Source: a virus (Duplodnaviria; Heunggongvirae; Uroviricota; Caudoviricetes). From it: DNA of 10,652 nucleotides. The DNA lies in IMG/VR virus record IMGVR_UViG_2671180884_000028, positions 1-10,652 of that record. The stretch is one strand, 5' to 3'. Positions 1 to 10,652 of the stretch are shown in pieces. The notes below the pieces were generated by a model that saw nothing but the letters and a program-made list of their open reading frames with translations, was not told the origin of the DNA and did not search any database. The first letter of the stretch is position 1, and each line of letters starts with the position of its first letter. A program made the position numbers and the translations under genes.

Positions 1-1242
1 ATGGCGAGAAAAACACCCCCATTAACCACAGTACAGATCAAAGCAGCCAGACCAGCAGAAAAGGAATACACCCTACAGGACGGCGGAGGGCTTTTTCTCC
101 TGATCAAACCGTCTGGATCAAAACTCTGGAGATTTTCCTACTACCGACCATCGGACAAAAAAAGAATATTGCTGAGTTTTGGATCGCTTGATGATGTTTC
201 CCTGGCTGATGCCAGAAAACGCCGTAGCGAGTACAGGGCGTTAATTCGTGCCGGAACTGACCCGCAGGACCACGAGAGGCAAAAAAGAGAGGCAGAGGCC
301 CGAAGACAAGGGAACACGTTCGAAAATGTGGCAACAGCATGGTACCAGGTGAAAATCAGCCAGAATCTGGCCCCCAATACGATTAAAGACATCTGGCGAT
401 CGCTGGAAAAATATGTATTCCCGTTCATCGGCAACACGCCAATAGACACCCTGACCGCTCGCAGGTTTGTTGAGGTGCTTACCCCCATCAAGGAACGTGG
501 CAACCTGGAAACGCTCAAGCGAGTTTTACAGCGTGTAAATGAGGTAATGGATTACGCCGCCAATAGTGGGATGATTGATGCCAATCCGGCTATGAATGTG
601 CGTAAGGCGTTCCCCTCCCCTGTAAAAAAACATATGCCAACAATCCGCCCCGAACAGCTGCCGGAGCTTATGCAGGCTTTATCAGTATCGGCAACAGAAC
701 GGCAGACCAGATTACTGATTGAATGGCAGTTACTGACCGTAACCCGTCCCGTTGAAGCATCGTCGGCACGCTGGGAAGAAATCGACATGGAGGCGCAACG
801 CTGGACCATACCCGCCGGACGCATGAAGATGCGCCGCGACCACGTTATCCCGCTTTGTGACCAGGCTATGGCAGTGCTGGAGGCTATGAAACCAATCAGC
901 CACCACCGCGATTATGTTTTCCCGAGTCTGAAAGACCCACGGCAGCCGATGAACAGCCAGACAGCAAACGCAGCATTACGACGCATGGGGTTCGCTGGCG
1001 TGCTGGTGTCTCATGGATTACGCGCCATATTCAGCACAGCAGCGAACGAGGAAGGATTCGAGCCGGACGTAATCGAGGCGGCACTTGCCCACGTCGACAC
1101 CAACGAAGTCAGACGGGCATACAACCGGAGCAACTACATAGAAAAACGCGTGGTGCTTATGCGCTGGTGGGGCGAATTTGTCGAGGCTGCGGCGACGGGC
1201 GTAACCCTCGCCAGTGGTAAAAGGGGTATCCGAGCCGTTTAG
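1..1242 (+). CDS. int: Tyrosine recombinase / integrase, P4-type (N-terminal arm-binding domain plus C-terminal catalytic domain)
   Basis: 413-aa ORF from ATG at 1 to TAG at 1240-1242. N-terminus (LTTVQIKAARPAEKEYTLQDGGGLFLLIKPSGSKLWRFSYY) is typical of the DUF4102 arm-binding domain of P4-like integrases. C-terminal region (HVIPL..., HGLRAIFSTAANEEGF..., RAYNRSNYIEKR) fits the tyrosine recombinase catalytic R..HxxR..Y pattern. Confidence 0.9.
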   Translation: MARKTPPLTTVQIKAARPAEKEYTLQDGGGLFLLIKPSGSKLWRFSYYRPSDKKRILLSFGSLDDVSLADARKRRSEYRALIRAGTDPQDHERQKREAEARRQGNTFENVATAWYQVKISQNLAPNTIKDIWRSLEKYVFPFIGNTPIDTLTARRFVEVLTPIKERGNLETLKRVLQRVNEVMDYAANSGMIDANPAMNVRKAFPSPVKKHMPTIRPEQLPELMQALSVSATERQTRLLIEWQLLTVTRPVEASSARWEEIDMEAQRWTIPAGRMKMRRDHVIPLCDQAMAVLEAMKPISHHRDYVFPSLKDPRQPMNSQTANAALRRMGFAGVLVSHGLRAIFSTAANEEGFEPDVIEAALAHVDTNEVRRAYNRSNYIEKRVVLMRWWGEFVEAAATGVTLASGKRGIRAV

Positions 1243-1340
1243 CTGTACAGAAAACCAGTAAAAACTACGAAAACCATTTAAAACCGTCGTATAATTGCAT
1301 CACATTTAACGACGAGGCCTTGAAAAATGAAACCGTTAAG

Positions 1341-1571
1341 ATGCAAACAAATTTCAGATGCAATTGCGACGGGCTGCAACTGGCCCTGATGGTTCAGCAT
1401 GAATTTTGGTCAACCTACGATCCGGAGGACAGAACGACGGCCCCATCAAAAAAACAGGTAGTAGATTTCCTGGTATCCCGTGGAGCTTCCAGAAATCTGG
1501 CTGTAAGTATTGATAAGGTTGTACGTCCGGCATCCATGAAGACCGGAGGCAGGCCAAAAAAATGGCGGTAA
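1341..1571 (+). CDS. Hypothetical small protein (76 aa from first ATG; ORF is open from TTG at 1320)
   Basis: Open frame ending TAA 1569-1571, preceded by a TATAAT hexamer at 1290-1295 and followed directly by a strong intrinsic terminator. No convincing Shine-Dalgarno; AGA/AGG codons present. An alternative 20-aa ORF from ATG 1327 has a better RBS (GAGG at 1313-1316). Could instead be a non-coding RNA. Confidence 0.3.
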   Translation: MQTNFRCNCDGLQLALMVQHEFWSTYDPEDRTTAPSKKQVVDFLVSRGASRNLAVSIDKVVRPASMKTGGRPKKWR

Positions 1572-1581
1572 CAATCCTGAA

Positions 1582-1605
1582 AGCGGCAGAAATGCCGCTT
1601 TTTTT
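1582..1605 (+). terminator. Rho-independent terminator
   Basis: Hairpin AGCGGCA-gaaa-TGCCGCT (7-bp stem, GAAA tetraloop) followed by a T-run of 7. Confidence 0.7.
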
Positions 1606-1632
1606 ATAAATCCCTTTCAAATCATCAATATA

Positions 1633-1720
1633 AAAAACGGTGTATACCGTTTAAAAACGGTGAGTACTGTTTTTCCCTGCATCCGATGATTTACCGTATT
1701 TCTCACCGGAATACACCGGA
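1633..1720 (+). promoter_or_regulatory. alpA upstream control region with repeated motifs
   Basis: Direct repeats AAAAACGGTG at 1633-1642 and 1653-1662 (20 bp apart), the first inside the inverted repeat AACGGT-gtat-ACCGTT (1636-1651). Direct repeats CACCGGA at 1704-1710 and 1714-1720 (10 bp apart), just upstream of the alpA RBS. Confidence 0.3.
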
Positions 1721-1738
1721 TTAATGAGGTAAATCACG

Positions 1739-1945
1739 ATGGAAGCAATCAAAAAAGTCATCTTTCGCCAGGAAGTAAAAAAACTTATCCATATTAAGGC
1801 AGACAGCACGCTGCAAAGCATGATCAACGCCGGAGAATTCCCGCAGGGTTTTCGTGTCGGTTTGCGCCGTCGCGGATGGTATGAGGAAGACGTAATCGCA
1901 TGGATGAAAGAACGCGAACAAGAAGCGCGCGGAACGACCGCTTAA
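1739..1945 (+). CDS. alpA: AlpA-family transcriptional regulator (prophage CP4-57 regulatory protein-like, HTH)
   Basis: 68 aa; ATG 1739, TAA 1943-1945; RBS TGAGG at 1725-1729. Sequence (FRQEVKKLIHIKADSTLQSMINAGEFPQGFRVGLRRRGWYEEDVIAWM) fits the AlpA/MerR-like HTH pattern (Φ..EV..L...STL...I..G.FP....VG.R..GW.E.DV..WM). Confidence 0.8.
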   Translation: MEAIKKVIFRQEVKKLIHIKADSTLQSMINAGEFPQGFRVGLRRRGWYEEDVIAWMKEREQEARGTTA

Positions 1946-2066
1946 CATATATAGGGCAAATGATGAACATAAAAAAAGCGGCCCCGAAATGGAGCCACCT
2001 TTCTGAACAATTAACCCGCTGCGCCGTATGTGTCAACAATCATAAGCCTGGGCATGATAACCGCGA

Positions 2067-2270
2067 TCAGGCTGGTGGGCAATTATCTTGCTTGTTGGGG
2101 CCGTATTGTGCTGCCATTTTCATCCGTTCAGAACGTGAATATTTTTTTAGAAACTCATCAAGGACAAAAGCGCATGGTGCGAATCTTTCTGATTCATGCT
2201 CGAGCGCCATATTTTCGTGCTCTCTGTTCGTTTTTTGCGATGGTGTATTGGTTGATTCTTTGTTGGTCAT
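2067..2270 (-). CDS. Hypothetical protein (67 aa), possible second gene downstream of the RHH repressor
   Basis: ATG at 2270 (minus strand), 57 bp downstream of the RHH gene stop on the same strand. Hydrophilic, no recognisable domain, weak RBS. Coding status uncertain. Confidence 0.2.
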   Translation of the reverse strand: MTNKESTNTPSQKTNREHENMALEHESERFAPCAFVLDEFLKKYSRSERMKMAAQYGPNKQDNCPPA

Positions 2271-2327
2271 TGTGTGTACCTGTAAAGCAATGCGCCGGAG
2301 TTCCTCACGCCACGGCGCTGATGGTTT

Positions 2328-2519
2328 TTATCCTTTGGGTTCTATGCCGCGCCGCTTTAGTTCAGTGCGCCCCAACTCTTTAAGCCAGTTGGCCAGGCTT
2401 ATGCCGTCGCTCTGTGCTTCTTTATCGAATTGCTCTTTTAGCTCTGGAGAAATTCGCATTCTGAATTGTGGGGATTGCCCGTCCCCTTTAGGGCTTTTAT
2501 CGCGTTTGATTGTTGACAA
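2328..2519 (-). CDS. Arc-like ribbon-helix-helix (RHH) DNA-binding protein, candidate island repressor
   Basis: The C-terminal 50 aa (SPQFRMRISPELKEQFDKEAQSDGISLANWLKELGRTEL) match the P22 Arc N-terminal beta-strand/helix pattern (MPQFNLRWPREVLDLVRKVAEENGRS...). Start is ambiguous: the ORF is open from TTG 2600; TTG 2519 is preceded by AGGTGA; ATG 2459 would remove the beta-strand. Stop TAA is the reverse complement of 2328-2330. Confidence 0.6.
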   Translation of the reverse strand: MSTIKRDKSPKGDGQSPQFRMRISPELKEQFDKEAQSDGISLANWLKELGRTELKRRGIEPKG

Positions 2520-2561
2520 GTGGTCACCTATTGAATTAGCCTTTCTATTGTTAGGTGACCA
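2513..2561. promoter_or_regulatory. Candidate operator/promoter: perfect 10-bp inverted repeat beside a consensus -35 hexamer
   Basis: TTGACA at 2513-2518; TGGTCACCTA at 2521-2530 and its exact reverse complement TAGGTGACCA at 2552-2561 (21-bp spacer). Lies between the RHH gene and the rightward early operon. No good -10 at canonical spacing, so the promoter call is tentative. Confidence 0.4.
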
Positions 2562-2653
2562 CCTTAACACAAGAGCACTTAAAAAAGCAAAGCCCCGCAA
2601 GTGTCATTACCACTCGCAGGGCTTCTAACCAACAACGTAAACTAGGAGCCGTT

Positions 2654-2848
2654 ATGGTTGCTGTAAATCATATACCACACCTTGTACACACACAAACTGC
2701 CTTTGTGTGGCGTTTTCTGGCACTGAGTGCCGGAGAATCTCAAATCATCCACGTAACCGCCTGGACGGAACGCGAAGCGCGTAACCGTTGCCCGTCCGGT
2801 TGTGTTGCTGTATTTGCCGCCCGTATTCGTCAGGAGGTAGGCTTATGA
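2654..2848 (+). CDS. Icd/Ash-like small protein (host cell-division-inhibitor-like family of P4-type elements)
   Basis: 64 aa from ATG 2654 with RBS AGGAG at 2644-2648. Motifs FVWRFLAL...TEREARNR...FAARI resemble the Icd-like family as recalled. The ORF track's longer version starts at GTG 2555 and would overlap the RHH gene. Confidence 0.5.
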   Translation: MVAVNHIPHLVHTQTAFVWRFLALSAGESQIIHVTAWTEREARNRCPSGCVAVFAARIRQEVGL

Positions 2849-3078
2849 GCCAGGAAATCACACTACAACAGGCAGCAGAACGCGCCCACCAAATCGAAGT
2901 TATTTGCGCACTGGCAGAGGATTACCCTGGCATGATGACCGACAGCGAATCAGGGGCAATCATCGGCTTACTTAAACGCCTTAGCGGTGAGGTCTGCGTA
3001 TTCCTGAGCGATGAACAGGAAAGAAGAACGCTTATTTCTAACGAAAAAAAATGCGGAGGGGTACACCATGTGCAATAA
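2845..3078 (+). CDS. Hypothetical protein (77 aa)
   Basis: ATG 2845 overlaps the upstream stop (ATGA at 2845-2848); RBS AGGAGG at 2832-2837. Confidence 0.55.
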   Translation: MSQEITLQQAAERAHQIEVICALAEDYPGMMTDSESGAIIGLLKRLSGEVCVFLSDEQERRTLISNEKKCGGVHHVQ

Positions 3079-3289
3079 CATCCGTCCGGACGCAGCAGCC
3101 GCCGCGCTCACTACGCTGATGCACGCGCTTATCGATATTGAATGCACTGCAGAGCTTGCGCAGGGAGAAGAACAGAAAGACCGGACACAGTTCGCCCTGG
3201 AATGTATCCGATACATCGCAACGCGGTCGCTGAATGACGCTAAAAATATTCTTGTTGCTGATTGTGAAAATGGGGGGGGTTATGCGTGA
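3068..3289 (+). CDS. Hypothetical protein (73 aa)
   Basis: ATG 3068 preceded by GGAGGGG (3055-3061). Overlaps the end of the upstream ORF by 11 nt. An in-frame ATG at 3011 lacks an RBS. Confidence 0.5.
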   Translation: MCNNIRPDAAAAALTTLMHALIDIECTAELAQGEEQKDRTQFALECIRYIATRSLNDAKNILVADCENGGGYA

Positions 3290-3515
3290 TGATCGTTTTA
3301 ATTCCCTGAAACAGGAATTTTCCGGCGTTCCTGATGATGCGGCTGATGCGCTTTCGTCAATGCCAGAACTTATTAGAGCGGCTTTTTTCTTACTTTCCAC
3401 GAGAGAATATAAATCAACGGGGCTTGATGTACTGAATATCGCCGCCGATTATGCGGAATATGTGGCAGAGGCGCGTTACAGAAGAAAATTTCCTGAGGAT
3501 GTAAGCCATGCGTGA
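3282..3515 (+). CDS. Hypothetical protein (77 aa)
   Basis: ATG 3282 preceded by a G-rich RBS (GGGGGGGG at 3272-3279). Overlaps the upstream stop at 3287-3289. Alternative ATG at 3234 has no RBS. Confidence 0.5.
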   Translation: MRDDRFNSLKQEFSGVPDDAADALSSMPELIRAAFFLLSTREYKSTGLDVLNIAADYAEYVAEARYRRKFPEDVSHA

Positions 3516-3741
3516 TATTTACCTCGAAACAATAGACCGCGCATTTCTTGCACTTTCTCACAGTGAAAGCATGATGGAAATATTACGCATATGGCTTGAA
3601 ACACTTGGCGACAATGAACGCGACAAACAAAAATCAAGAATTGCCACGGTATTAATAACGCTTCTTGAGCCTGTAATAATGGAACTGCAAGAAATAGACT
3701 TATTGCACGACAGATATAACGAACAGCACACCGGAGAATAA
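3508..3741 (+). CDS. Hypothetical protein (77 aa)
   Basis: ATG 3508 with GAGGA at 3495-3499; 8-nt overlap with the upstream ORF; stop TAA 3739-3741. Confidence 0.55.
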   Translation: MRDIYLETIDRAFLALSHSESMMEILRIWLETLGDNERDKQKSRIATVLITLLEPVIMELQEIDLLHDRYNEQHTGE

Positions 3742-3746
3742 AAATA

Positions 3747-4046
3747 ATGAAACTTAAATATTCTGGCTTAACTGCCAGTGGCAACACTCACCCTAAATTT
3801 ACGCGCGGTGATATTTACCGCGACCAGTACGGCGGCACGGTAATGATTAAGGGCGTGGCGGGACGGTGCGTAACTTACCGCCGTGAAGGTTACGAATATG
3901 ATTGCGTGATGCCTGTTTATCAGTTCCGGCGTGATTTTTCTCTGGTACAGACCGCGCCGCATAACGTGCCCACCAGCAACGCCAGAGCACGGGCAAACAT
4001 CCAGAAGCTGAAAACCATGATTAACGGATTCAGGGGTAAAAAATGA
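3747..4046 (+). CDS. Hypothetical protein (99 aa)
   Basis: ATG 3747 with GGAGAA at 3733-3738. Its stop overlaps the primase start (ATGA at 4043-4046), indicating translational coupling. Confidence 0.55.
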   Translation: MKLKYSGLTASGNTHPKFTRGDIYRDQYGGTVMIKGVAGRCVTYRREGYEYDCVMPVYQFRRDFSLVQTAPHNVPTSNARARANIQKLKTMINGFRGKK

Positions 4047-5797
4047 AACTGGCACCGAACGTAAAACAGCAGTCACGCGGCATAAAACACAAAGAAACAG
4101 AAGTCATTATTTTTGCGGGTAGTGATGCCTGGTCACACGCGAAACAATGGCAGGAACATGACGCGCGTATGGCCGGAGATAATGAGCCTCCTGTGTGGCT
4201 TGGGGAGCAGCAGTTATCAGAACTGGATAAGCTGCAAATTGTGCCGGAAGGCAGAAAATCCGTGCGCATATTCAGGGCCGGACATCTTGCACCAGTAATG
4301 ATCAAGGCGATTGGTCAAAAGCTGGCGGCGGCTGGTGTACAGGATGCAAATTTTTATCCTGAGGGTATGCACGGCAAGGAGGTGCAGAACTGGCGCGAAT
4401 ACCTGGCCCGTGAACGCCAGAATCTTTCTGATGGTCTGGTCATTGAGCTTCCGGTAAAGCAAAAGGCGCAACTTTCGCAGATGGCGGACAGTGAGCGCGC
4501 GCAGTTGCTTGTCGATCGCTTTGATGGCGTTTGCGTACATCCTGAAAGTGAAATCGTTCACGTATGGCGTGGCGGGGTATGGTGTCCGGTCAGCACAATG
4601 GAACTGAGCCGCGAAATGGTGGCGATCTATTCAGAGCACAGGGCCACTTTCAGCAAGCGCGTAATCAATAACGCCGTGGAAGCATTAAAAGTTATTGCCG
4701 AACCAATGGGCGAGCCGTCCGGCGATTTGTTGCCGTTCGCCAATGGTGCGCTTGACCTGAAAACAGGGGAATTTTCCCCGCACACGCCGGAGAACTGGAT
4801 CACCACGCACAACGGCATTGAATACACGCCACCAGCACCAGGGGAGAATATCCGCGACAACGCGCCAAACTTTCATAAATGGCTTGAGCACGCAGCCGGA
4901 AAAGACCCGCGCAAGATGATGCGTATATGTGCCGCGCTGTACATGATTATGGCGAACCGGTACGACTGGCAGATGTTTATTGAGGCCACCGGAGACGGCG
5001 GGAGCGGTAAAAGTACATTCACACACATAGCCAGCCTTCTGGCAGGGAAACAGAACACGGTAAGCGCTGAGATGACATCGCTTGATGATGCTGGTGGACG
5101 TGCGCAGGTTGTCGGGAGTCGTCTTATCGTCCTGGCAGACCAGCCGAAATATACAGGCGAAGGAACGGGCATCAAGAAAATCACGGGCGGCGACCCCGTG
5201 GAAATTAACCCGAAATATGAAAAGCGTTTCACGGCGGTAATCAGGGCGGTGGTGCTGGCGACCAATAACAATCCGATGATATTCACCGAACGGGCCGGAG
5301 GTGTGGCACGTCGTCGCGTGATTTTCCGTTTCGACAATATTGTTAGTGAGGCCGAAAAAGACAGGGAGCTACCGGAAAAAATTGCGGCTGAAATCCCCGT
5401 CATTATCCGCCGCTTGCTGGCGAACTTTACCGACCCTGAAAAGGCACGGGCTTTACTCATTGAGCAGCGTGACGGTGATGAAGCTCTGGCAATAAAGCAA
5501 CAGACGGATCCGGTTATTGAGTTTTGCCAGTTCCTGAATTTTCTGGAGGAAGCGCGCGGCCTGATGATGGGGGGCGGTGGCGATTCAGTGAAGTACACGA
5601 CCAGGAACAGCCTTTACCGCGTCTATCTGGCGTTTATGGCATACGCAGGCAGGAGCAAACCGCTAAACGTGGCTGAGTTCAGCAAGGCCATGAAGCCAGC
5701 GGCGAAAGTTTACGGGCATGAATATATTACGCGAAAAGTTAAGGGAGTAACGCAGACCAACGCAATTACAACAGACGATTGCGACGCGTTTTTATAA
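4043..5797 (+). CDS. Replication initiator: primase / SF3 helicase (P4 alpha-like / D5-family Pri-Rep protein)
   Basis: 584 aa. Walker A motif ATGDGGSGKST and Walker B-like RLIVLADQP in the C-terminal half. Size and layout match satellite primase-helicases. An iteron-rich origin lies immediately downstream. Confidence 0.85.
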   Translation: MKLAPNVKQQSRGIKHKETEVIIFAGSDAWSHAKQWQEHDARMAGDNEPPVWLGEQQLSELDKLQIVPEGRKSVRIFRAGHLAPVMIKAIGQKLAAAGVQDANFYPEGMHGKEVQNWREYLARERQNLSDGLVIELPVKQKAQLSQMADSERAQLLVDRFDGVCVHPESEIVHVWRGGVWCPVSTMELSREMVAIYSEHRATFSKRVINNAVEALKVIAEPMGEPSGDLLPFANGALDLKTGEFSPHTPENWITTHNGIEYTPPAPGENIRDNAPNFHKWLEHAAGKDPRKMMRICAALYMIMANRYDWQMFIEATGDGGSGKSTFTHIASLLAGKQNTVSAEMTSLDDAGGRAQVVGSRLIVLADQPKYTGEGTGIKKITGGDPVEINPKYEKRFTAVIRAVVLATNNNPMIFTERAGGVARRRVIFRFDNIVSEAEKDRELPEKIAAEIPVIIRRLLANFTDPEKARALLIEQRDGDEALAIKQQTDPVIEFCQFLNFLEEARGLMMGGGGDSVKYTTRNSLYRVYLAFMAYAGRSKPLNVAEFSKAMKPAAKVYGHEYITRKVKGVTQTNAITTDDCDAFL

Positions 5798-5810
5798 TTT
5801 TTTGTAAAAG

Positions 5811-6040
5811 CCCTCTACCCCATCTACCTGAATGAAATAAATACATATTATTCAACATGATAAGTGGGTAGAGGGCCAGGTAGAAGGCTAATAAAAGCTC
5901 TCTACCTCTTCTACCTGATTTTATCAGTTTCAGGTAGCAGGGTAGACGGTAGGTAGAGGAGCCCAAAAAGCTATCTACCCGCTGAAAGCCGCGCCATTAC
6001 TGACATGATGAGCATTCGGGTAGATGGGTAGAGGGGGGGA
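5811..6040. repeat. Iteron array / candidate origin of replication
   Basis: About 12 copies of a core TCTACC / GGTAGA motif arranged in clustered pairs in both orientations. Examples: CCCTCTACCCCATCTACCTGA (5811-5831), GGGTAGAGGGCCAGGTAGAAGG (5865-5886), CTCTCTACCTCTTCTACCTGA (5899-5919), AGGTAGCAGGGTAGACGGTAGGTAGAGGA (5932-5960), GGGTAGATGGGTAGAGGGG (6018-6036). An AT-rich stretch sits at 5831-5862. Confidence 0.6.
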
Positions 6041-6080
6041 GGCACAACTAAAAACTTTTTAAACGAGGGGGTGAAAATAA

Positions 6081-6395
6081 ATGCGCATACATCAAAATCA
6101 CTTAACAAACATGCCAGCCGAAAACATGAATCAGGGGCGACAAATGACCAAAATTCGCAGAGACAGAACAGAGCCAAAATATAAAGCGTTAGACATGACT
6201 GAGCATACCTTAAAGGTGGCAATCAGAACGATAGACCGCCACGCGGGGGAAGGATACGCGAAAGCACATCCCGACATGATAAGCGCATTCATGACCACGA
6301 CGGCGGCAAATTTTGCCACGCTGACAGAGCGGGAGATTGCGGAAGCTGAACAGGTGACAACCATCAACGTTAAAAACGTAGAGGTGGAATCATGA
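6081..6395 (+). CDS. Hypothetical protein (104 aa)
   Basis: ATG 6081 with RBS GAGGGGG (6065-6071). Stop overlaps the ssb start (ATGA at 6392-6395). Confidence 0.55.
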   Translation: MRIHQNHLTNMPAENMNQGRQMTKIRRDRTEPKYKALDMTEHTLKVAIRTIDRHAGEGYAKAHPDMISAFMTTTAANFATLTEREIAEAEQVTTINVKNVEVES

Positions 6396-6809
6396 CAGCA
6401 CAGATAGCGGCTTACGGGCGGCTGGTGGCTGGTGGCTGACCCACAGTTAAAGACCACCAGCAAGGGCACACAAATGACGATGGCGAGTATGGCGGTTCCC
6501 CTGACATGCAGCCAGGCTGATGACGGAACGGCGACGATGTGGTTATCCGTCCTGGCGTTTGGCAGACAGGCCGACGCACTGGCAAAACACCGCAAAGGCG
6601 AGCTGGTGAGCGTGGCGGGTAACATGCAGGTAAGCCAGTGGACAGGCCAGAACGGCGAAACGCGGCAGGGCTGGCAGGTTATCGCAGACAGTGTAATCAG
6701 TGCCCGTGCTGCCCGTCCTGGCGGGAGCAGACGTACAACCACAGGCACACAGGGTAATCAGCCACCAGCGGGAGGCGATGACCCTTACGGTGACGGTATT
6801 CCGTTCTGA
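6392..6809 (+). pseudogene. ssb: Single-stranded DNA-binding protein (SSB-like), disrupted by a frameshift
   Basis: ATG 6392 opens MTAQIAAYGRLVAGG and then hits TGA at 6437-6439. The rest of the protein continues in the +1 frame (ADPQLKTTSKGTQMTMASMAVPL...GWQVIADSVISA...DDPYGDGIPF) with the SSB acidic DIPF tail. A tandem 7-bp duplication GCTGGTG/GCTGGTG at 6421-6434 accounts for the shift; removing one copy restores ...GRLVADPQLK... in frame. Confidence 0.65.
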
Positions 6810-6819
6810 GGGGGTGACG

Positions 6820-7092
6820 ATGGTACATGACCGCATAGCGGAGGAACTCGAGGCAAAAGGCTTTTACCGGAGGGCGGCGGCGCGATGGGGTGAAGTTATG
6901 CAGCTGGTGGAGACAGACAAGGAACGGCATCAGGTTACGATGCGACGGCTGGAATGTTCCAGGAAGGCACAGAAGCCACCGGAGCCGCCGGATAACTTCG
7001 GAGACCTGAGAAAGGCAGTCGATCGCACTTATGCTGAAATGGGTATAGATGGTGTAAGCGATGAAATATGGCGTAATTACCCAGACAGCTAA
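6820..7092 (+). CDS. PerC-family transcriptional regulator-like protein (90 aa)
   Basis: ATG 6820 with RBS GAGGGGG (6808-6814). N-terminus MVHDRIAEELEAKGFYRRAAARWGEVMQL matches the conserved PerC/Pch N-terminal pattern as recalled. Confidence 0.55.
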   Translation: MVHDRIAEELEAKGFYRRAAARWGEVMQLVETDKERHQVTMRRLECSRKAQKPPEPPDNFGDLRKAVDRTYAEMGIDGVSDEIWRNYPDS

Positions 7093-7097
7093 TCAAC

Positions 7098-7120
7098 AGC
7101 CGGAGAAATCCGGCTTTTTT
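7098..7120 (+). terminator. Rho-independent terminator
   Basis: Hairpin AGCCGGA-gaaa-TCCGGCT followed by TTTTTT, directly after the PerC-like gene. An almost identical copy occurs at 9372-9395. Confidence 0.6.
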
Positions 7121-7131
7121 GTACCCAAAAA

Positions 7132-7169
7132 AAGCCCGATAAGTACAGGAGGCATCTTATCGGGCTTTT
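7132..7169. terminator. Second hairpin, possible bidirectional terminator
   Basis: AAGCCCGATAAG-(12-nt loop)-CTTATCGGGCTT with TTTT on the plus side and an A7 run (T7 on minus) on the other side. Confidence 0.4.
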
Positions 7170-7246
7170 GCATATGAGGTTTTTTTGGTGCACTGACACA
7201 CATGATCGGGATAATCATTTCATAATTTGCAACACAACTCAACATC

Positions 7247-7297
7247 ATTGCACAAAATGCAATCCTGATTATAATCAGAGCTGGATGTTCATCCAGT
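7247..7297 (+). promoter_or_regulatory. Promoter of the head module with three palindromic elements (candidate operator or activator sites)
   Basis: -35 TTGCAC (7248-7253), 16-bp spacer, consensus -10 TATAAT (7270-7275). The -10 lies inside the perfect 14-bp palindrome CTGATTATAATCAG (7265-7278). Flanked by ATTGCA-caaaa-TGCAAT (7247-7263) and CTGGATG-tt-CATCCAG (7281-7296). Confidence 0.5.
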
Positions 7298-7331
7298 TAT
7301 GATTTTTTAAGTCAAAGAGGAATTTCTTACT

Positions 7332-7538
7332 ATGGCTGAAGAGAAAAAAGGCGGTGTTTCGGTGTACATAAGCCCCGACATCGTGAAGGCGCTCAAGGAA
7401 CGCCACCAGCAGAACGTAAAAGCAGGCATTGCGGCAGGACTTGATCCGCTGGCGATGGTTGAGCCGTCAACAGGCTGGCAGGTGCGCGCCTACTTACGTG
7501 CGGCGCTGGGTATGAATCAGGTTCACGGGGGTGAATAA
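7332..7538 (+). CDS. Hypothetical head-module protein (68 aa), translationally coupled to the major capsid gene
   Basis: ATG 7332 with RBS AAGAGGAA (7315-7322). Stop overlaps the capsid gene start (TAATG at 7536-7540). Position suggests a scaffold or assembly factor, but there is no sequence evidence for this. Confidence 0.5.
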   Translation: MAEEKKGGVSVYISPDIVKALKERHQQNVKAGIAAGLDPLAMVEPSTGWQVRAYLRAALGMNQVHGGE

Positions 7539-8593
7539 TGGCAGGCAAAGCAATGGCACTTAACACTAACCAGCTTTTTACATACCTGAATCGCGGGGAT
7601 ATTGCGGAATTTAAATTCAGTCCGCTGTTTACCACGCTGTTTTTCCCGAACGTGGCGACATTCAGCACCCAAAACATCATGCTGGATACCCTGGACATTG
7701 AAGAAGTCACCATGTCGGCGTTTTGTTCGCCTATGGTTGGCAGTCAGGTACAGCGCGATAAAGGGTATGAAACCAGCACAATCAAACCTGGCTACATGAA
7801 GCCAAAGCACGAAATCGATCCAACAAAAACCATCATGCGCATGGCTGGAGAAGATCCGGCACAGCTTAACGACCCTACCTACCGCCGTATGCGCCTGATT
7901 ACTGGCAACATGCGCCGCCAGATAAACGCCATTAAAGCGCGCGTGGAATGGCTGGCGGTGAATGCGATAACGACCGGAAAAAACATCATTGAGGGCGAAG
8001 GCATAGAACGCTATGAAATCGACTGGAAAATACCGGAAAACTGCATCATAGAGCAGGCCAAGGGTAAAAAATGGTCCGAGCATGATAAAGATATTTACGA
8101 TCCAATCTATGACATCGAACTATACGCAGATCAGGCAGGTTGCCCCGCCAACGTCATGATTATGGGCGCTGAGGTATGGCGCACGTTACGCAGCTTTAAA
8201 AAATTCCGCGAACTGTACGATCTTTCCCGTGGTTCAGAATCCGCCGCAGAACTGGCCTGTAAAAACCTGGGTGAAGTAGTGAGCTTTAAAGGCTATCTGG
8301 GCGATATTGCCCTTATCGTCTATTCCGGCAAATACACTGACAGCGACGGTACCGAAAAATATTTCCTTGAGCCTGATTTGCTGGTCCTGGGTAACACCAA
8401 CAATAAAGGGCTGGTGGCCTATGGTGCGATTATGGATCAGGAAGCGGTAAGAACGGGCGCAACGCAAAACATGTTCTACCCGAAAAACTGGATTGAAGAC
8501 GGCGATCCGGCGATTGAGTACGTTCAGACGCACAGCGCACCGCAGCCGGTACCGGCAGATATTCGCAAATTTGTTACCGTCAAAATTGGTTAA
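7538..8593 (+). CDS. Major capsid protein, lambda gpE family (HK97 fold)
   Basis: 351 aa. Collinear with lambda gpE as recalled: EFKFSPLFTTLFF vs KFKFDPLFLRLFF; PGYMKPKHEIDP vs PGYVKPKHEVNP; GEDPAQLNDPTYRRMRLITGNMR vs DEDPQNLADPAYRRRRIIMQNMR; VSFKGYLGDIALIVYSGKY vs VSYKGMYGDVAIVVYSGQY; FYPKNWIEDGDPA vs RYPKNWVTTGDPA; C-terminus KFVTVKIG vs EFVSVQLA. Confidence 0.9.
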   Translation: MAGKAMALNTNQLFTYLNRGDIAEFKFSPLFTTLFFPNVATFSTQNIMLDTLDIEEVTMSAFCSPMVGSQVQRDKGYETSTIKPGYMKPKHEIDPTKTIMRMAGEDPAQLNDPTYRRMRLITGNMRRQINAIKARVEWLAVNAITTGKNIIEGEGIERYEIDWKIPENCIIEQAKGKKWSEHDKDIYDPIYDIELYADQAGCPANVMIMGAEVWRTLRSFKKFRELYDLSRGSESAAELACKNLGEVVSFKGYLGDIALIVYSGKYTDSDGTEKYFLEPDLLVLGNTNNKGLVAYGAIMDQEAVRTGATQNMFYPKNWIEDGDPAIEYVQTHSAPQPVPADIRKFVTVKIG

Positions 8594-8604
8594 CGGGGGA
8601 TTCT

Positions 8605-8940
8605 ATGGACACTCCATACATTGAGTTATTTGCAGGCAGTCAGCAGGTATCCACGACGCTGGTACATTTTGCCGCTGATGCTGGCGTCATTCAGGAATTT
8701 ACCCCGCTGATGCTGGCGGACAATGGCGAGTTTAAGCCGTGGGATGGTCAGGAATCTGGCAAGGCTGTTTATCTGACCTCGTACCCTGTGGACACGTCAA
8801 AGCAAAAATCAGCACAGTGTTACAAGACGGGGATATTTAATATCGCCGCCGTAAACTGGCCTGAGAGCGTCGACACTGACGCGAAAAAATGCGCCGCCTT
8901 TGCGGGTTCTGGCGTATCCGTTCAGCCGCTGGCGCGATAA
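8605..8940 (+). CDS. Head decoration / stabilisation protein, lambda gpD-like
   Basis: 111 aa; ATG 8605 with RBS GGGGGA. Matches lambda gpD as recalled: TPLMLADNGEFKPWDG vs TPLMLDTSSRKLVAWDG; CYKTGIFNIAAVNWPE vs FYKSGTFRYEDVLWPE; DAKKCAAFAGSGVS vs DETKKRTAFAGTAIS. Confidence 0.8.
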   Translation: MDTPYIELFAGSQQVSTTLVHFAADAGVIQEFTPLMLADNGEFKPWDGQESGKAVYLTSYPVDTSKQKSAQCYKTGIFNIAAVNWPESVDTDAKKCAAFAGSGVSVQPLAR

Positions 8941-8952
8941 GCAGGGGGAACG

Positions 8953-9366
8953 ATGGCAACGAATGAAAGCATCATGACGCTACCGCTGGCGAGTAAATTT
9001 AAAGCCGAAGCGCGGGCAATGGCTGACAGAGGTTTATCAACCTACGAGGCCGTATATCAACTCAACAAACTGGAAGAGCAGGACAAGCCGCGCGCTGATG
9101 CGATTATGGCGCTTCATGAACATAACGACTATCAGCCGCTGTTACGTGCAATGGCAAACGTGCCATGTATTAGCGTCGATAATGCTCGTGAAATCCTGAA
9201 CATGACCATAGAGCAGGAGCGCCCAAAGGTTGCGCCGGAGCTTACCGCAGCCTTTGAAAACTTTATGGACATGCACAGCCCGAAAGCCGTATCACCCGGC
9301 ATGGCATACGATGGCAGAAACCAGGGCGATGACGGCGACATCGATCGCATACTGAAAACCATCTGA
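8953..9366 (+). CDS. Hypothetical protein (137 aa) at the end of the head module
   Basis: ATG 8953 with RBS AGGGGGAA (8943-8950). Followed by a terminator hairpin. No recognisable homology. Confidence 0.55.
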   Translation: MATNESIMTLPLASKFKAEARAMADRGLSTYEAVYQLNKLEEQDKPRADAIMALHEHNDYQPLLRAMANVPCISVDNAREILNMTIEQERPKVAPELTAAFENFMDMHSPKAVSPGMAYDGRNQGDDGDIDRILKTI

Positions 9367-9371
9367 GACAA

Positions 9372-9395
9372 GGCCGGAGAAATCCGGCTTTTTTT
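9372..9395 (+). terminator. Rho-independent terminator (second copy of the hairpin at 7098-7120)
   Basis: GGCCGGA-gaaa-TCCGGC followed by T7. Sits immediately upstream of the cosQ-like sequence. Confidence 0.6.
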
Positions 9396-9572
9396 ACGGG
9401 TCCTTTCCGGCATATGGACCCGTTACGGGGCGGCGACCTCGCGCGTTTTCGCTATTTATGAGCCTTTTCAGGGGGGTGGTGGTGGTTTTGTTGTTTGCTC
9501 TATCTTTATGAATGAAAAGGGAAAGATGCAAACAATACACCAACCTGAAGCAGTAATTAAGTTGGTGTATTA
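9396..9572 (+). other. cos site A (cosQ-like, cosN, divergent cosB), forward orientation, upstream of terS
   Basis: ACGGGTCCTTTCCGG...CCGTTACG followed by the exact lambda cohesive-end 12-mer GGGCGGCGACCT (9428-9439), then CGCGCGTTTTCGCTATTTATGAG, closely matching the lambda genome left end as recalled. The distal part lacks lambda R-site motifs and instead has inverted repeats AATACACCAAC / GTTGGTGTATT (9530-9540 / 9561-9571) and TGTTTGC / GCAAACA (9494-9500 / 9517-9523). Confidence 0.75.
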
Positions 9573-10115
9573 ATGAAATCGCACCTGATGAACAAAAAAA
9601 ACATGGCGAAAAGCTGCCGTGTAAGTGCGACAGCGTTCGACAAGTGGGGAGTGACTCCCGTTGAACGTAAAGGCCGTGAGGCGTTTTATGATGTTGCCAG
9701 CGTGATAGACAATAGGGTTAACAATGCAATTAGCCAGCTTACAAACGACAAAGGCGATATTGATGATGATGAACTCTTACGAGTCAGGATCAGATTACTG
9801 ACAGCACAGGCGGAGGCGCAGGAACTTAAAAACGAGCGCGATCGCGGTGACGTGATTGATACTGAGTTTTGCCTGTACGCGCTTTCAAAGCTGGCGAGTC
9901 AGATTTCATCAATCATGGACAGCCTCCCGCTTACTATGCAAAGGAGCTTCCCACAGATTACCCCCGCCATGCTGGACAGGCTTAAAAGGGAAGTGGTTAA
10001 AGCCTGTAATGCCAGTGCCAGAGTTGCCGACAACCTCCCACAGATACTGGCTGATTACTTGAAAGAAACAACCGGAAACGTACCGGAAAAGTTGCTACAG
10101 AAGAAAGGCAAGTAA
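9573..10115 (+). CDS. Terminase small subunit, lambda Nu1-like (TerS)
   Basis: 180 aa. Middle and C-terminal regions are collinear with lambda Nu1 as recalled: LTAQAEAQELKNERDRGDVIDTEFCLYALSKLASQISSIMDSLPLTMQRSFPQ vs LTRAQADAQELKNARDSAEVVETAFCTFVLSRIAGEIASILDGLPLSVQRRFPE. The N-terminal wHTH region is much more divergent. Alternative start ATG 9588 (MNKKNMAK) aligns with Nu1 MEVNKKQLA. No strong RBS at either start. Confidence 0.85.
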   Translation: MKSHLMNKKNMAKSCRVSATAFDKWGVTPVERKGREAFYDVASVIDNRVNNAISQLTNDKGDIDDDELLRVRIRLLTAQAEAQELKNERDRGDVIDTEFCLYALSKLASQISSIMDSLPLTMQRSFPQITPAMLDRLKREVVKACNASARVADNLPQILADYLKETTGNVPEKLLQKKGK

Positions 10116-10340
10116 CAGAAGCGCAATTATTGAACAAAAATGAGAAACGACATGAAAGCGTCATAAATCGCCATTTCAGATGATTACCGTGTCGTTTCTT
10201 TTTATTGTGTATCTATTTAAAAACAAATAGTTATGTTCGAGAAGTACCGACATGATTTTTCCAGAAAAATTTTCATAAACAGATAAAAACCGCGAGGTCG
10301 CCGCCCCGTAACGGGCCATAATTCCAGGAAGGACCCGACG
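10116..10340 (-). other. cos site B (lambda-like cosQ-cosN-cosB) in inverted orientation, downstream of terS
   Basis: On the minus strand: CGGGTCCTTCCTGGAATTATGGCCCGTTACG, then GGGCGGCGACCT (plus 10295-10306), then CGCGGTTTTTATCTGTTTATGAAAATTTTTCTGG, then R-site-like AAGAAACGACACGG and ATGTCGTTTCTCA (perfect 10-bp inverted repeat at plus 10152-10161 / 10190-10199). This is collinear with lambda cosN-I2-R3-R2 as recalled. A 25-bp core is a perfect inverted repeat of cos A (9419-9443 vs 10291-10315). Confidence 0.7.
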
Positions 10341-10370
10341 ACACCAGACTATCAGAACGATGGGGGCACA

Positions 10371-10652
10371 ATGACAGAAGCCGAACTACTGCGATTAATC
10401 CGTCGCGTTGCCGGAATCAGCCAGCAGGCTGACGAACAGGCCACGCAGCCGGACAGCGTGACAGCCGAAAATTATGTGCGTGTTGTTGCGGAGGTGATGC
10501 GCCGTGATGGTATCCAGCTTAATGATGCGGATATGCGCGACATACGGATCCGCGTTCTTGAAATGCTGGCCTACCGTCGCCGCGTGCAGACGTACAGGGA
10601 AAAAGCAAAAATAACGTACCAGTGGAAGAAGCCGGAGCGATTACGGCGGTAA
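10371..10652 (+). CDS. Hypothetical protein (93 aa) just beyond cos B
   Basis: ATG 10371 with G-rich RBS (GGGGG at 10362-10366); stop TAA 10650-10652 at the window end. No recognisable homology. Confidence 0.45.
   Translation: MTEAELLRLIRRVAGISQQADEQATQPDSVTAENYVRVVAEVMRRDGIQLNDADMRDIRIRVLEMLAYRRRVQTYREKAKITYQWKKPERLRR

Follow-up and report, generated by a model that had tools for sequence, protein, structure and literature searches.

We analysed a 10,652-nucleotide stretch of DNA (positions 1 to 10,652 of IMG/VR virus record IMGVR_UViG_2671180884_000028; this whole stretch is called the window), focusing on the plus-strand open reading frame (ORF) at 6820–7092, referred to here as perC. We are fairly confident that this gene is an allele of pchE, a group-3 PerC homologue, that it forms the last early or replication gene of an EcCICFT073-like cos phage-inducible chromosomal island (PICI), and that it is carried as host-directed accessory cargo. 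The original prediction, made from the letters of the window, had proposed a PerC-family regulator borne by a satellite and followed by its own terminators, which might activate the enterocyte effacement locus (LEE) of the host or regulate the adjacent head module. The family assignment, the carriage on a PICI-type satellite and the terminators are borne out below, while LEE activation is not supported for group 3, and control of the head module appears unlikely.

The PerC-family gene and its identity as pchE

The perC ORF runs from an ATG at 6820 to a TAA stop at 7090–7092 and encodes a protein of 90 amino acids. Residues 1–89 of this protein aligned with positions 1–89 of the 90 positions of the Pfam PerC model (PF06069), with an E value of 6.3e-45 and a score of 151.8 bits (gathering cut-off, 22.6 bits), and the protein also matched phrog_994 (PHROG 994; E 2.8e-46). 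It has both the small size (~90–105 amino acids) and the core of the PerC family, G-x-YRRAA-x-RW together with RR-x-x-C, and the core columns were invariant in alignments of 9 and of 60 sequences, PerC of enteropathogenic E. coli (EPEC) being among the sequences aligned.

Within the family, the window protein was identical at 89 of 90 residues (99%) to the protein encoded at the roxA(ycfD)–phoQ site (O-island 51, OI-51) of the O157:H7 strain PA20, the sole substitution being Q28 in the window versus L28 in PA20. PchE was described as a PerC homologue encoded on OI-51 between ycfD and phoQ (PMC3378721), and PA20, which carries one copy of the gene, is the strain used for functional work on pchE (PMC6265319, PMC7369912). 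The allele at the roxA–phoQ site of O157:H7 FRIK2533 was 91% identical at the protein level, and a partial database relative (P0039), named PchE by its source, was 89% identical over the aligned part. Identity to EPEC PerC (encoded on pMAR2) was 39%, and identity to a 104-amino acid PchABC-type protein was 40%; the latter, whose gene lies downstream of phage lysis genes, was taken as group-1 PchA/B/C type because its size (315 bp) and setting are those expected of group 1. We call the gene a pchE allele because of the 89/90 match to the PA20 protein, as against 39–40% identity to PerC and the PchABC type. Its length of 90 amino acids, distinct from the 104 of group 1, is that of group-3 Pch proteins, and its position directly downstream of ssb, on an island with a P4-type integrase, is the group-3 slot.

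PerC itself (also BfpW), from the perABC operon of the EPEC EAF plasmid pMAR2, belongs to the same Pfam family and has 89 residues compared with 90 in the window protein, with which it shares the invariant residues D4, Y16-R-R-A-A, R22-W23, R43, C46, R85 and Y87. It differs in being plasmid-borne, downstream of the AraC-type gene perA, and in activating LEE1 (PMC11773190), which group-3 Pch does not.

The start at Met-6820 is supported by a ribosome-binding site, GGGGGTGA, read from the sequence at 6810–6817 on the plus strand directly 3' of the ssb stop codon (6807–6809), by the Pfam match starting exactly at this residue, and by 90-amino acid homologues in RefSeq; alignment revealed that the GGGGGTGA site is kept at the strain 48 and O157 loci. 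We discarded a longer, 130-amino acid ORF starting from a GTG at 6700: it is out of frame with ssb, which it overlaps, the 40 residues that it adds match nothing, and the match to the hidden Markov model (HMM) starts at Met-6820. Compared with six loci coding for the identical protein, the gene differed at 3–5 nt, all of them synonymous; the ratio of nonsynonymous to synonymous substitution rates (dN/dS) was 0.18–0.27 against diverged alleles and spanned 0–0.27 overall. The perC gene is under purifying selection and is clearly maintained. There is thus next to no chance that perC is non-functional, be it a chance ORF, a decaying remnant, or a misreading of a true 130-amino acid product: the 130-amino acid form is annotated as a hypothetical protein in one database entry (P0001), and against this stand the full-length HMM match from the ATG-6820 methionine with its strong ribosome-binding site, the synonymous-only changes among loci coding for the identical protein, the out-of-frame and matchless extension, and the indexing of the exact 90-amino acid protein in 803 blocks of an assembly collection.

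No Pfam match was obtained for the minus-strand ORFs beneath perC (6697–6930 and 6935–7096), for the minus-strand ORF at 7093–7248 or for the plus-strand ORF at 7168–7302. PADLOC gave no defence match for PerC or nine other small island ORFs, and a tblastn search of a phage collection with the PerC protein returned a single weak, uninformative match of 36% identity.

The satellite island and the slot after ssb

Judged by its gene content, the window is an EcCICFT073-like cos PICI. It has the integrase, alpA-like gene and primase-replicase of Gram-negative PICIs, no lysis or tail genes, a size in the range of ~10–15 kb and site-specific insertion, related islands being bounded by yejM/tRNA-Pro–narP, roxA–phoQ and cspD–clpS. 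The helper-type cos site is represented by two exact copies of lambda cosN, GGGCGGCGACCT, located by sequence search at 9428–9439 on the plus strand and, inverted, at 10295–10306 on the minus strand; the two sites flank a Nu1-like gene, and the chance expectation for matches with ≤2 mismatches was 0.96. Over 91% of its length the window was 93% identical to an island found beside tRNA-Pro/yejM in Nissle 1917 and related strains. EcCICFT073-type cos PICIs (Fillol-Salom 2018, 2019) have a layout like that of the window, comprising int, an alpA-like gene, DUF4222/RgdR, a primase, and homologues of the lambda-type capsid and decoration proteins (c1499/c1500 in EcCICFT073), and EcCICFT073 likewise has two cosN copies (PMC6092414). 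The window differs in encoding a 180-amino acid Nu1-like protein, whereas published descriptions of EcCICFT073 give it RppA and no TerS homologue (PMC6092414, PMC6739421). Induction of EcCICFT073 by lambda and phi80, its packaging with them and its interference with them have been shown (PMC6092414, PMC6739421).

The gene immediately upstream of perC is ssb (6432–6809, plus strand; Pfam SSB, E 8e-14), and the gap between the two is 10 nt. A sigma-70 consensus scan of 6000–7600 found no promoter-like site; given this and the 10-nt spacing, the simplest reading is that perC is probably co-transcribed with ssb from the rightward early operon. Downstream of perC lies an intrinsic terminator, T1 (7098–7121, plus strand), consisting of the hairpin GCCGGAGAAATCCGGC (7098–7115; −12.6 kcal/mol, z −3.75) and a T6 run. 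It is followed by a terminator-like hairpin, T2 (7130–7173, strand not specified; hairpin 7130–7169, −20.5 kcal/mol, z −4.67), which is preceded by an A-run and followed by a T-run and is the first element kept in islands without perC.

The PA20 island has the block orf104–ssb–perC–T1 (window 6141–7120) in common with the window, at 89% identity, and homology ends at T1, at window position 7120. PchE of O157:H7 (OI-51, CP-933C, at roxA(ycfD)–phoQ) thus occupies the same slot after ssb and is followed by the same T1 terminator, and T1 marks the end of an early block common to different satellite classes. The PA20 packaging module contains an HK97 capsid, protease, portal, connectors, HNH, TerS and TerL, so that PchE of PA20 rides an HK97-type capsid-forming PICI (cf-PICI), whereas the window gene rides a lambda E/D-type cos PICI. 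In the Nissle island, which has no perC, ssb runs directly into a T1 hairpin copy and an unrelated stretch of ~250 bp, and homology to the window resumes at 7128. FRIK2533 has perC–T1 followed by an additional 74-amino acid ORF and a second T1 copy. From these alignments, perC and its terminator behave as a cassette that occupies a variable slot ending the early block.

Each cassette of the variable slot is closed by a hairpin, GCCGGAG(A/C)AATCCGGC, with a T-run. It was observed 3' of perC in the window (7098–7121), 3' of both perC and the 74-amino acid ORF in O157 FRIK2533 (locus L003, ~9320–9345 and 9690–9715), and directly 3' of ssb in Nissle (locus L001, ~12960–12990). This cassette-end hairpin may be a recombination boundary for cargo exchange.

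At the DNA level, the perC allele group was present in 725 of 5426 complete E. coli genomes. The identical protein was found at four integration sites, namely a lambdoid prophage portal gene, yejM/tRNA-Pro–narP, roxA–phoQ and cspD–clpS. Islands with an identical or 99%-identical PchE carry three replicase types (D5_N primase, AAA_25 RepA helicase and DUF927) and two unrelated packaging modules (lambda E/D and HK97 cf-PICI). The spread of PchE over sites, replicases and packaging modules reveals extensive module shuffling among E. coli satellites, and at the roxA–phoQ site the satellite class differs between O157:H7 lineages. Beyond this allele group, widespread E. coli capsid-forming PICIs carry a PerC-family gene in the same slot (P0056, indexed in 938 blocks), and in E. 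albertii, E. ruysiae, Kluyvera, Shimwellia, Enterobacter and Buttiauxella PerC-family genes with 40–61% identity come directly after ssb, with a P4-type primase and DUF4222 upstream. Most of the genera carrying such ssb–perC satellites are not known to harbour a LEE. Other family members occur in the moron region of a P22-like prophage, after lambdoid lysis genes, and beside perA or helix-turn-helix (HTH) regulators on plasmids. Linkage of ssb and perC in the leading regions of conjugative plasmids was also considered and found unsupported, the inspected plasmids having perC beside perA or HTH regulators and insertion sequence elements.

Islands of the same type also occur inside lambdoid prophages: one splits the portal gene in E. 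coli strain 48 (L002, 1–14254), and another lies between gpW and the S49 protease (L018, 1–16644). These two islands sit within, and disrupt, the head module of a potential helper.

The early region of the window begins with a P4-type tyrosine integrase (1–1242, plus strand; Pfam Phage_integrase, Arm-DNA-bind_3 and Phage_int_M). An AlpA-like HTH protein (1739–1945, plus strand), a candidate inducer of the island, gave a Pfam Phage_AlpA match that, with 17.8 bits (E 0.003), fell short of the cut-off of 21, and was 90% identical to an HTH regulator encoded in the Nissle island. On its minus strand the early region has just one sizeable gene, at 2328–2600, which runs against the early operon; it has a weak HicB-like match (E 9e-4), and its homologue in related islands is annotated as YlcI/YnfO family. 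Next comes a DUF4222 protein (3747–4046, plus strand; Pfam DUF4222, E 2e-23), which shares 96–100% identity with its counterparts in O157, strain 48 and Nissle and has R20-G21-D22 in its translation. Since RgdR, the OI-51 regulator of type III secretion, has a functionally important RGD motif (PMC3378721), the DUF4222 protein would fit a RgdR-like regulator. Replication would be initiated by a P4/D5-type primase-helicase (4043–5797, plus strand; Pfam D5_N, DUF5906 and Pox_D5; phrog_864), after which orf104 (6081–6395, plus strand; phrog_1231, function unknown) opens the shared orf104–ssb–perC block.

Beyond perC, orf68 starts the packaging and head module (7332–10115, plus strand), which includes a lambda E-type capsid gene (7538–8593, plus strand; Pfam Phage_cap_E and PHROGs), a lambda D-type decoration gene (8605–8940, plus strand; Pfam HDPD and PHROGs), orf137 (8953–9366, plus strand) and the gene for the 180-amino acid Nu1-like protein (9573–10115, plus strand; Pfam Phage_Nu1). 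Lying beside the capsid and decoration genes, orf137 matched PHROG 53 (head maturation protease) in its C-terminal portion, at positions 495–567 of 583, which points to a Nu3-like scaffold that has no protease domain. Phmmer comparison of orf137 and the Nu1-like protein with the solved RppC or lambda Nu1 chains gave no match. The last gene of the island in the window is orf93 (10371–10652; phrog_1561, function unknown), which is also the last gene of the PA20 cf-PICI, with 90% DNA identity, though the packaging modules are unrelated; it is a conserved right-end gene.

Regulatory role and competing explanations

Published work on PA20, if it carries over to the window allele, supports a host-directed regulatory role for PchE in curli, flagella and adhesion rather than in LEE expression. 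Over-expression of pchE in PA20 lowered csgD more than 7-fold and decreased biofilm, independently of ler and espA (PMC6265319); it raised flhDC more than 2-fold, lowered adhesion to HEp-2 cells more than 10-fold through FliC, raised ler 2.1-fold and lowered stpA 2.5-fold (PMC7369912). The pchE transcript drops, rather than rises, on SOS or prophage induction in this strain (PMC6265319, PMC5931665). The group-1 proteins PchA/B/C, encoded on lambdoid prophages of enterohaemorrhagic E. coli (EHEC), are small helical proteins of the same family on mobile elements, like the window protein; Pch displaces H-NS at LEE1, and the relief of H-NS/StpA/Hha silencing by group 1 (PMC4764244) is the best available model for PchE. 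They differ from it in length (104 amino acids, 315 bp, versus 90 amino acids), in being SOS-induced where pchE is SOS-repressed, and in raising ler 4- to 8-fold where pchE has a weak effect or none (PMC6265319, PMC5931665).

An AlphaFold2 model built with 60 homologues was all-helical, with a mean pLDDT of 87.7 (~96 over residues 1–50), and comprised three helices at residues 5–50, a linker, a helix at 60–74 and a short helix at 81–84. The NCBIfam ANR model (NF033650) matched the window protein with 18.1 bits (E 0.0018), falling short of the curated cut-off of 32 bits, and matched 27 of 60 family members at E ≤ 0.01 (best 6e-6) over PerC residues 7–51, which suggests remote similarity rather than membership. 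ANR proteins, such as Aar of enteroaggregative E. coli, are small helical regulators, and the literature ties ANR as well as PerC to H-NS and to regulators of the AraC type; the targets of ANR proteins are AraC-type activators and H-NS (PMC11773190, discussion). They are 39–80 amino acids long (PMC4038620) and are without the C-terminal helices of PerC (residues 60–84).

Taking these features together, we propose that perC would be transcribed with ssb from the rightward early operon, with transcription ending at T1/T2, and would yield a 10-kDa product without a classical DNA-binding domain but with a confidently modelled N-terminal three-helix unit (residues 5–50) that is tetratricopeptide repeat (TPR)-like and remotely ANR-like. 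From the combination of this unit and the missing DNA-binding domain, PchE most likely acts through protein-protein contacts, as a small adaptor that would re-tune H-NS/StpA/Hha silencing complexes or AraC-type activators. Such contacts have been demonstrated for group-1 Pch and ANR proteins, and the target set of PchE would differ from that of group 1. By analogy with PA20, the allele would be expected to lower csgD and curli, biofilm and cell adhesion, to raise flhDC and flagella, and to change ler by no more than ~2-fold. The gene would then be accessory cargo shifting the host between adhesion and motility rather than a master switch of the LEE, and the head module would not need it.

Several points weigh against this account. 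Small helical proteins in general give TPR-like fold matches, and the ANR hits are all weak and sub-threshold, which limits the weight of both; the case for co-transcription with ssb is made only by the spacing and by a promoter scan without a match; and the conserved ssb–perC synteny in genera with no known LEE would fit a satellite-intrinsic role equally well. The published pchE phenotypes come mostly from plasmid over-expression, with small effects of deletion, and they are carried over from the PA20 allele with L28 to a window allele with Q28.

The alternative raised by the original prediction, that the protein activates LEE1/ler like EPEC PerC or EHEC PchA/B/C, so that acquisition or induction of the satellite would switch on type III secretion, is very unlikely in our judgement. 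It draws on the shared Pfam family, on the invariant YRRAAxRW and RRxxC residues that the protein shares with EPEC PerC and the PchABC-type protein, on the ~2-fold rise of ler upon pchE over-expression, and on a statement that some PICI-coded PerC homologues activate the LEE, in a paper that lists PerC alleles as PICI accessory genes (PMC6092414). Identity to the true activators is only 39% (PerC) and 40% (the 104-amino acid PchABC type), however, and groups 2 and 3 Pch were not needed for ler or espA expression or for adhesion (PMC6265319); with PchE the activity of the ler promoter rose less than 2-fold, compared with 4- to 8-fold with PchA–C (PMC5931665), LEE1-lacZ fusions did not respond to the PerC-like genes of EcCICFT073 and EcCIEDL933 (PMC11773190, citing Porter 2005), pchE lowers adhesion (PMC7369912), and the gene is common in non-EHEC E. 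coli. The opposite effect, that of an ANR-type anti-activator or repressor which binds an AraC-family activator or H-NS and silences virulence genes including the LEE, also seems unlikely, though it has a precedent in EcCIMP1_025, a PerC-family protein carried as cargo by the PICI EcCIMP1 of E. coli MP1. This protein, for which weak ANR-like matches were noted by its authors, represses LEE1, silencing LEE1-lux strongly and dose-dependently in C. rodentium, and EcCIMP1 is without structural genes (PMC11773190). The recurrent, weak ANR HMM matches over residues 7–51, the mainly repressive effects of pchE on csgD and adhesion (PMC7369912, PMC6265319), and the AraC/HTH regulators adjoining plasmid PerC genes point the same way. 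Against it stand the score of 18.1 bits relative to the curated 32, the identity of only ~40% between EcCIMP1_025 and the PerC-like proteins of the PICIs EcCICFT073 and EcCIEDL933 (PMC11773190), the slight rise rather than silencing of ler by pchE (PMC7369912, PMC5931665), and the finding of no AraC-type gene in a Pfam scan of the window.

We consider it quite improbable that perC instead serves the satellite, as a last early gene that activates or de-silences the late head and packaging operon or helper-phage genes, with host effects being secondary. Consistent with such a role, perC always has ssb on one side and the packaging module on the other, in E/D-type cos PICIs as well as HK97-type cf-PICIs, the slot recurs in the satellites from E. 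albertii to Buttiauxella listed above, and the head-operon promoter, with its weak −35, looks activator-dependent. This promoter (7248–7275) was found by eye, the consensus scan having missed it with the −35 matching at 3 of 6 positions. It opens the head-operon leader (7248–7304, plus strand), which consists of TTGCAC (7248–7253), a 16-nt spacer and TATAAT (7270–7275; a perfect −10), a palindrome, TGATTATAATCA (7266–7277), overlapping the −10, and, immediately downstream and preceding the orf68 ribosome-binding site, a stable hairpin with a T6 run (7273–7304; −13.4 kcal/mol, z −4.19). Control of this operon by PerC is unlikely because the Nissle island, without perC, keeps the same leader and promoter from 7128 together with an intact head module. 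The 413-bp leader with orf68 was present in 597 genomes, with perC-less examples among the islands compared; perC is gained and lost as a gene-plus-terminator cassette, two terminators insulate it from the head operon, and related PerC genes occur in prophage moron regions and beside AraC/HTH genes on plasmids. Moreover, among the cloned post-ori genes of EcCICFT073 only c1503 affected lambda, although the clones may not include a perC homologue (PMC6739421).

The promoter-proximal terminator layout of the leader (window 7248–7331) resembles lambda PR'/tR'. By speculative analogy, a helper-phage antiterminator or other factor, rather than PerC, might switch on the satellite head genes.

Implications for annotation and satellite biology

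The reading we favour, of perC as a pchE allele carried as host-directed cargo, bears mainly on annotation: the ORF should be named pchE (group-3 PerC homologue) rather than LEE activator, and the island EcCICFT073-like cos PICI. It is already published that PerC alleles occur on Gram-negative PICIs, where PerC-family regulators have been called common (PMC11773190), that pchE lies on OI-51, and that group-3 Pch affects the LEE weakly or not at all, so that the observation, while correct, is ordinary and has little weight as a discovery.

A further lead comes from the conserved ssb–perC slot in genera with no known LEE, which could reflect a function for the satellite itself. The PerC family might be primarily an early function of satellites and phages, a small TPR/ANR-like counter-silencer that would remodel H-NS-type complexes upon island induction; we hold this to be a tentative idea of low probability, and the dispensability of perC in near-identical islands counts against it. 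If it were true, the benefit would go to the element, and the effects on the LEE, curli and flagella would be later co-options or by-products. Should the ssb–perC slot indeed reflect element function, it would link the control of xenogeneic silencing to satellite biology.

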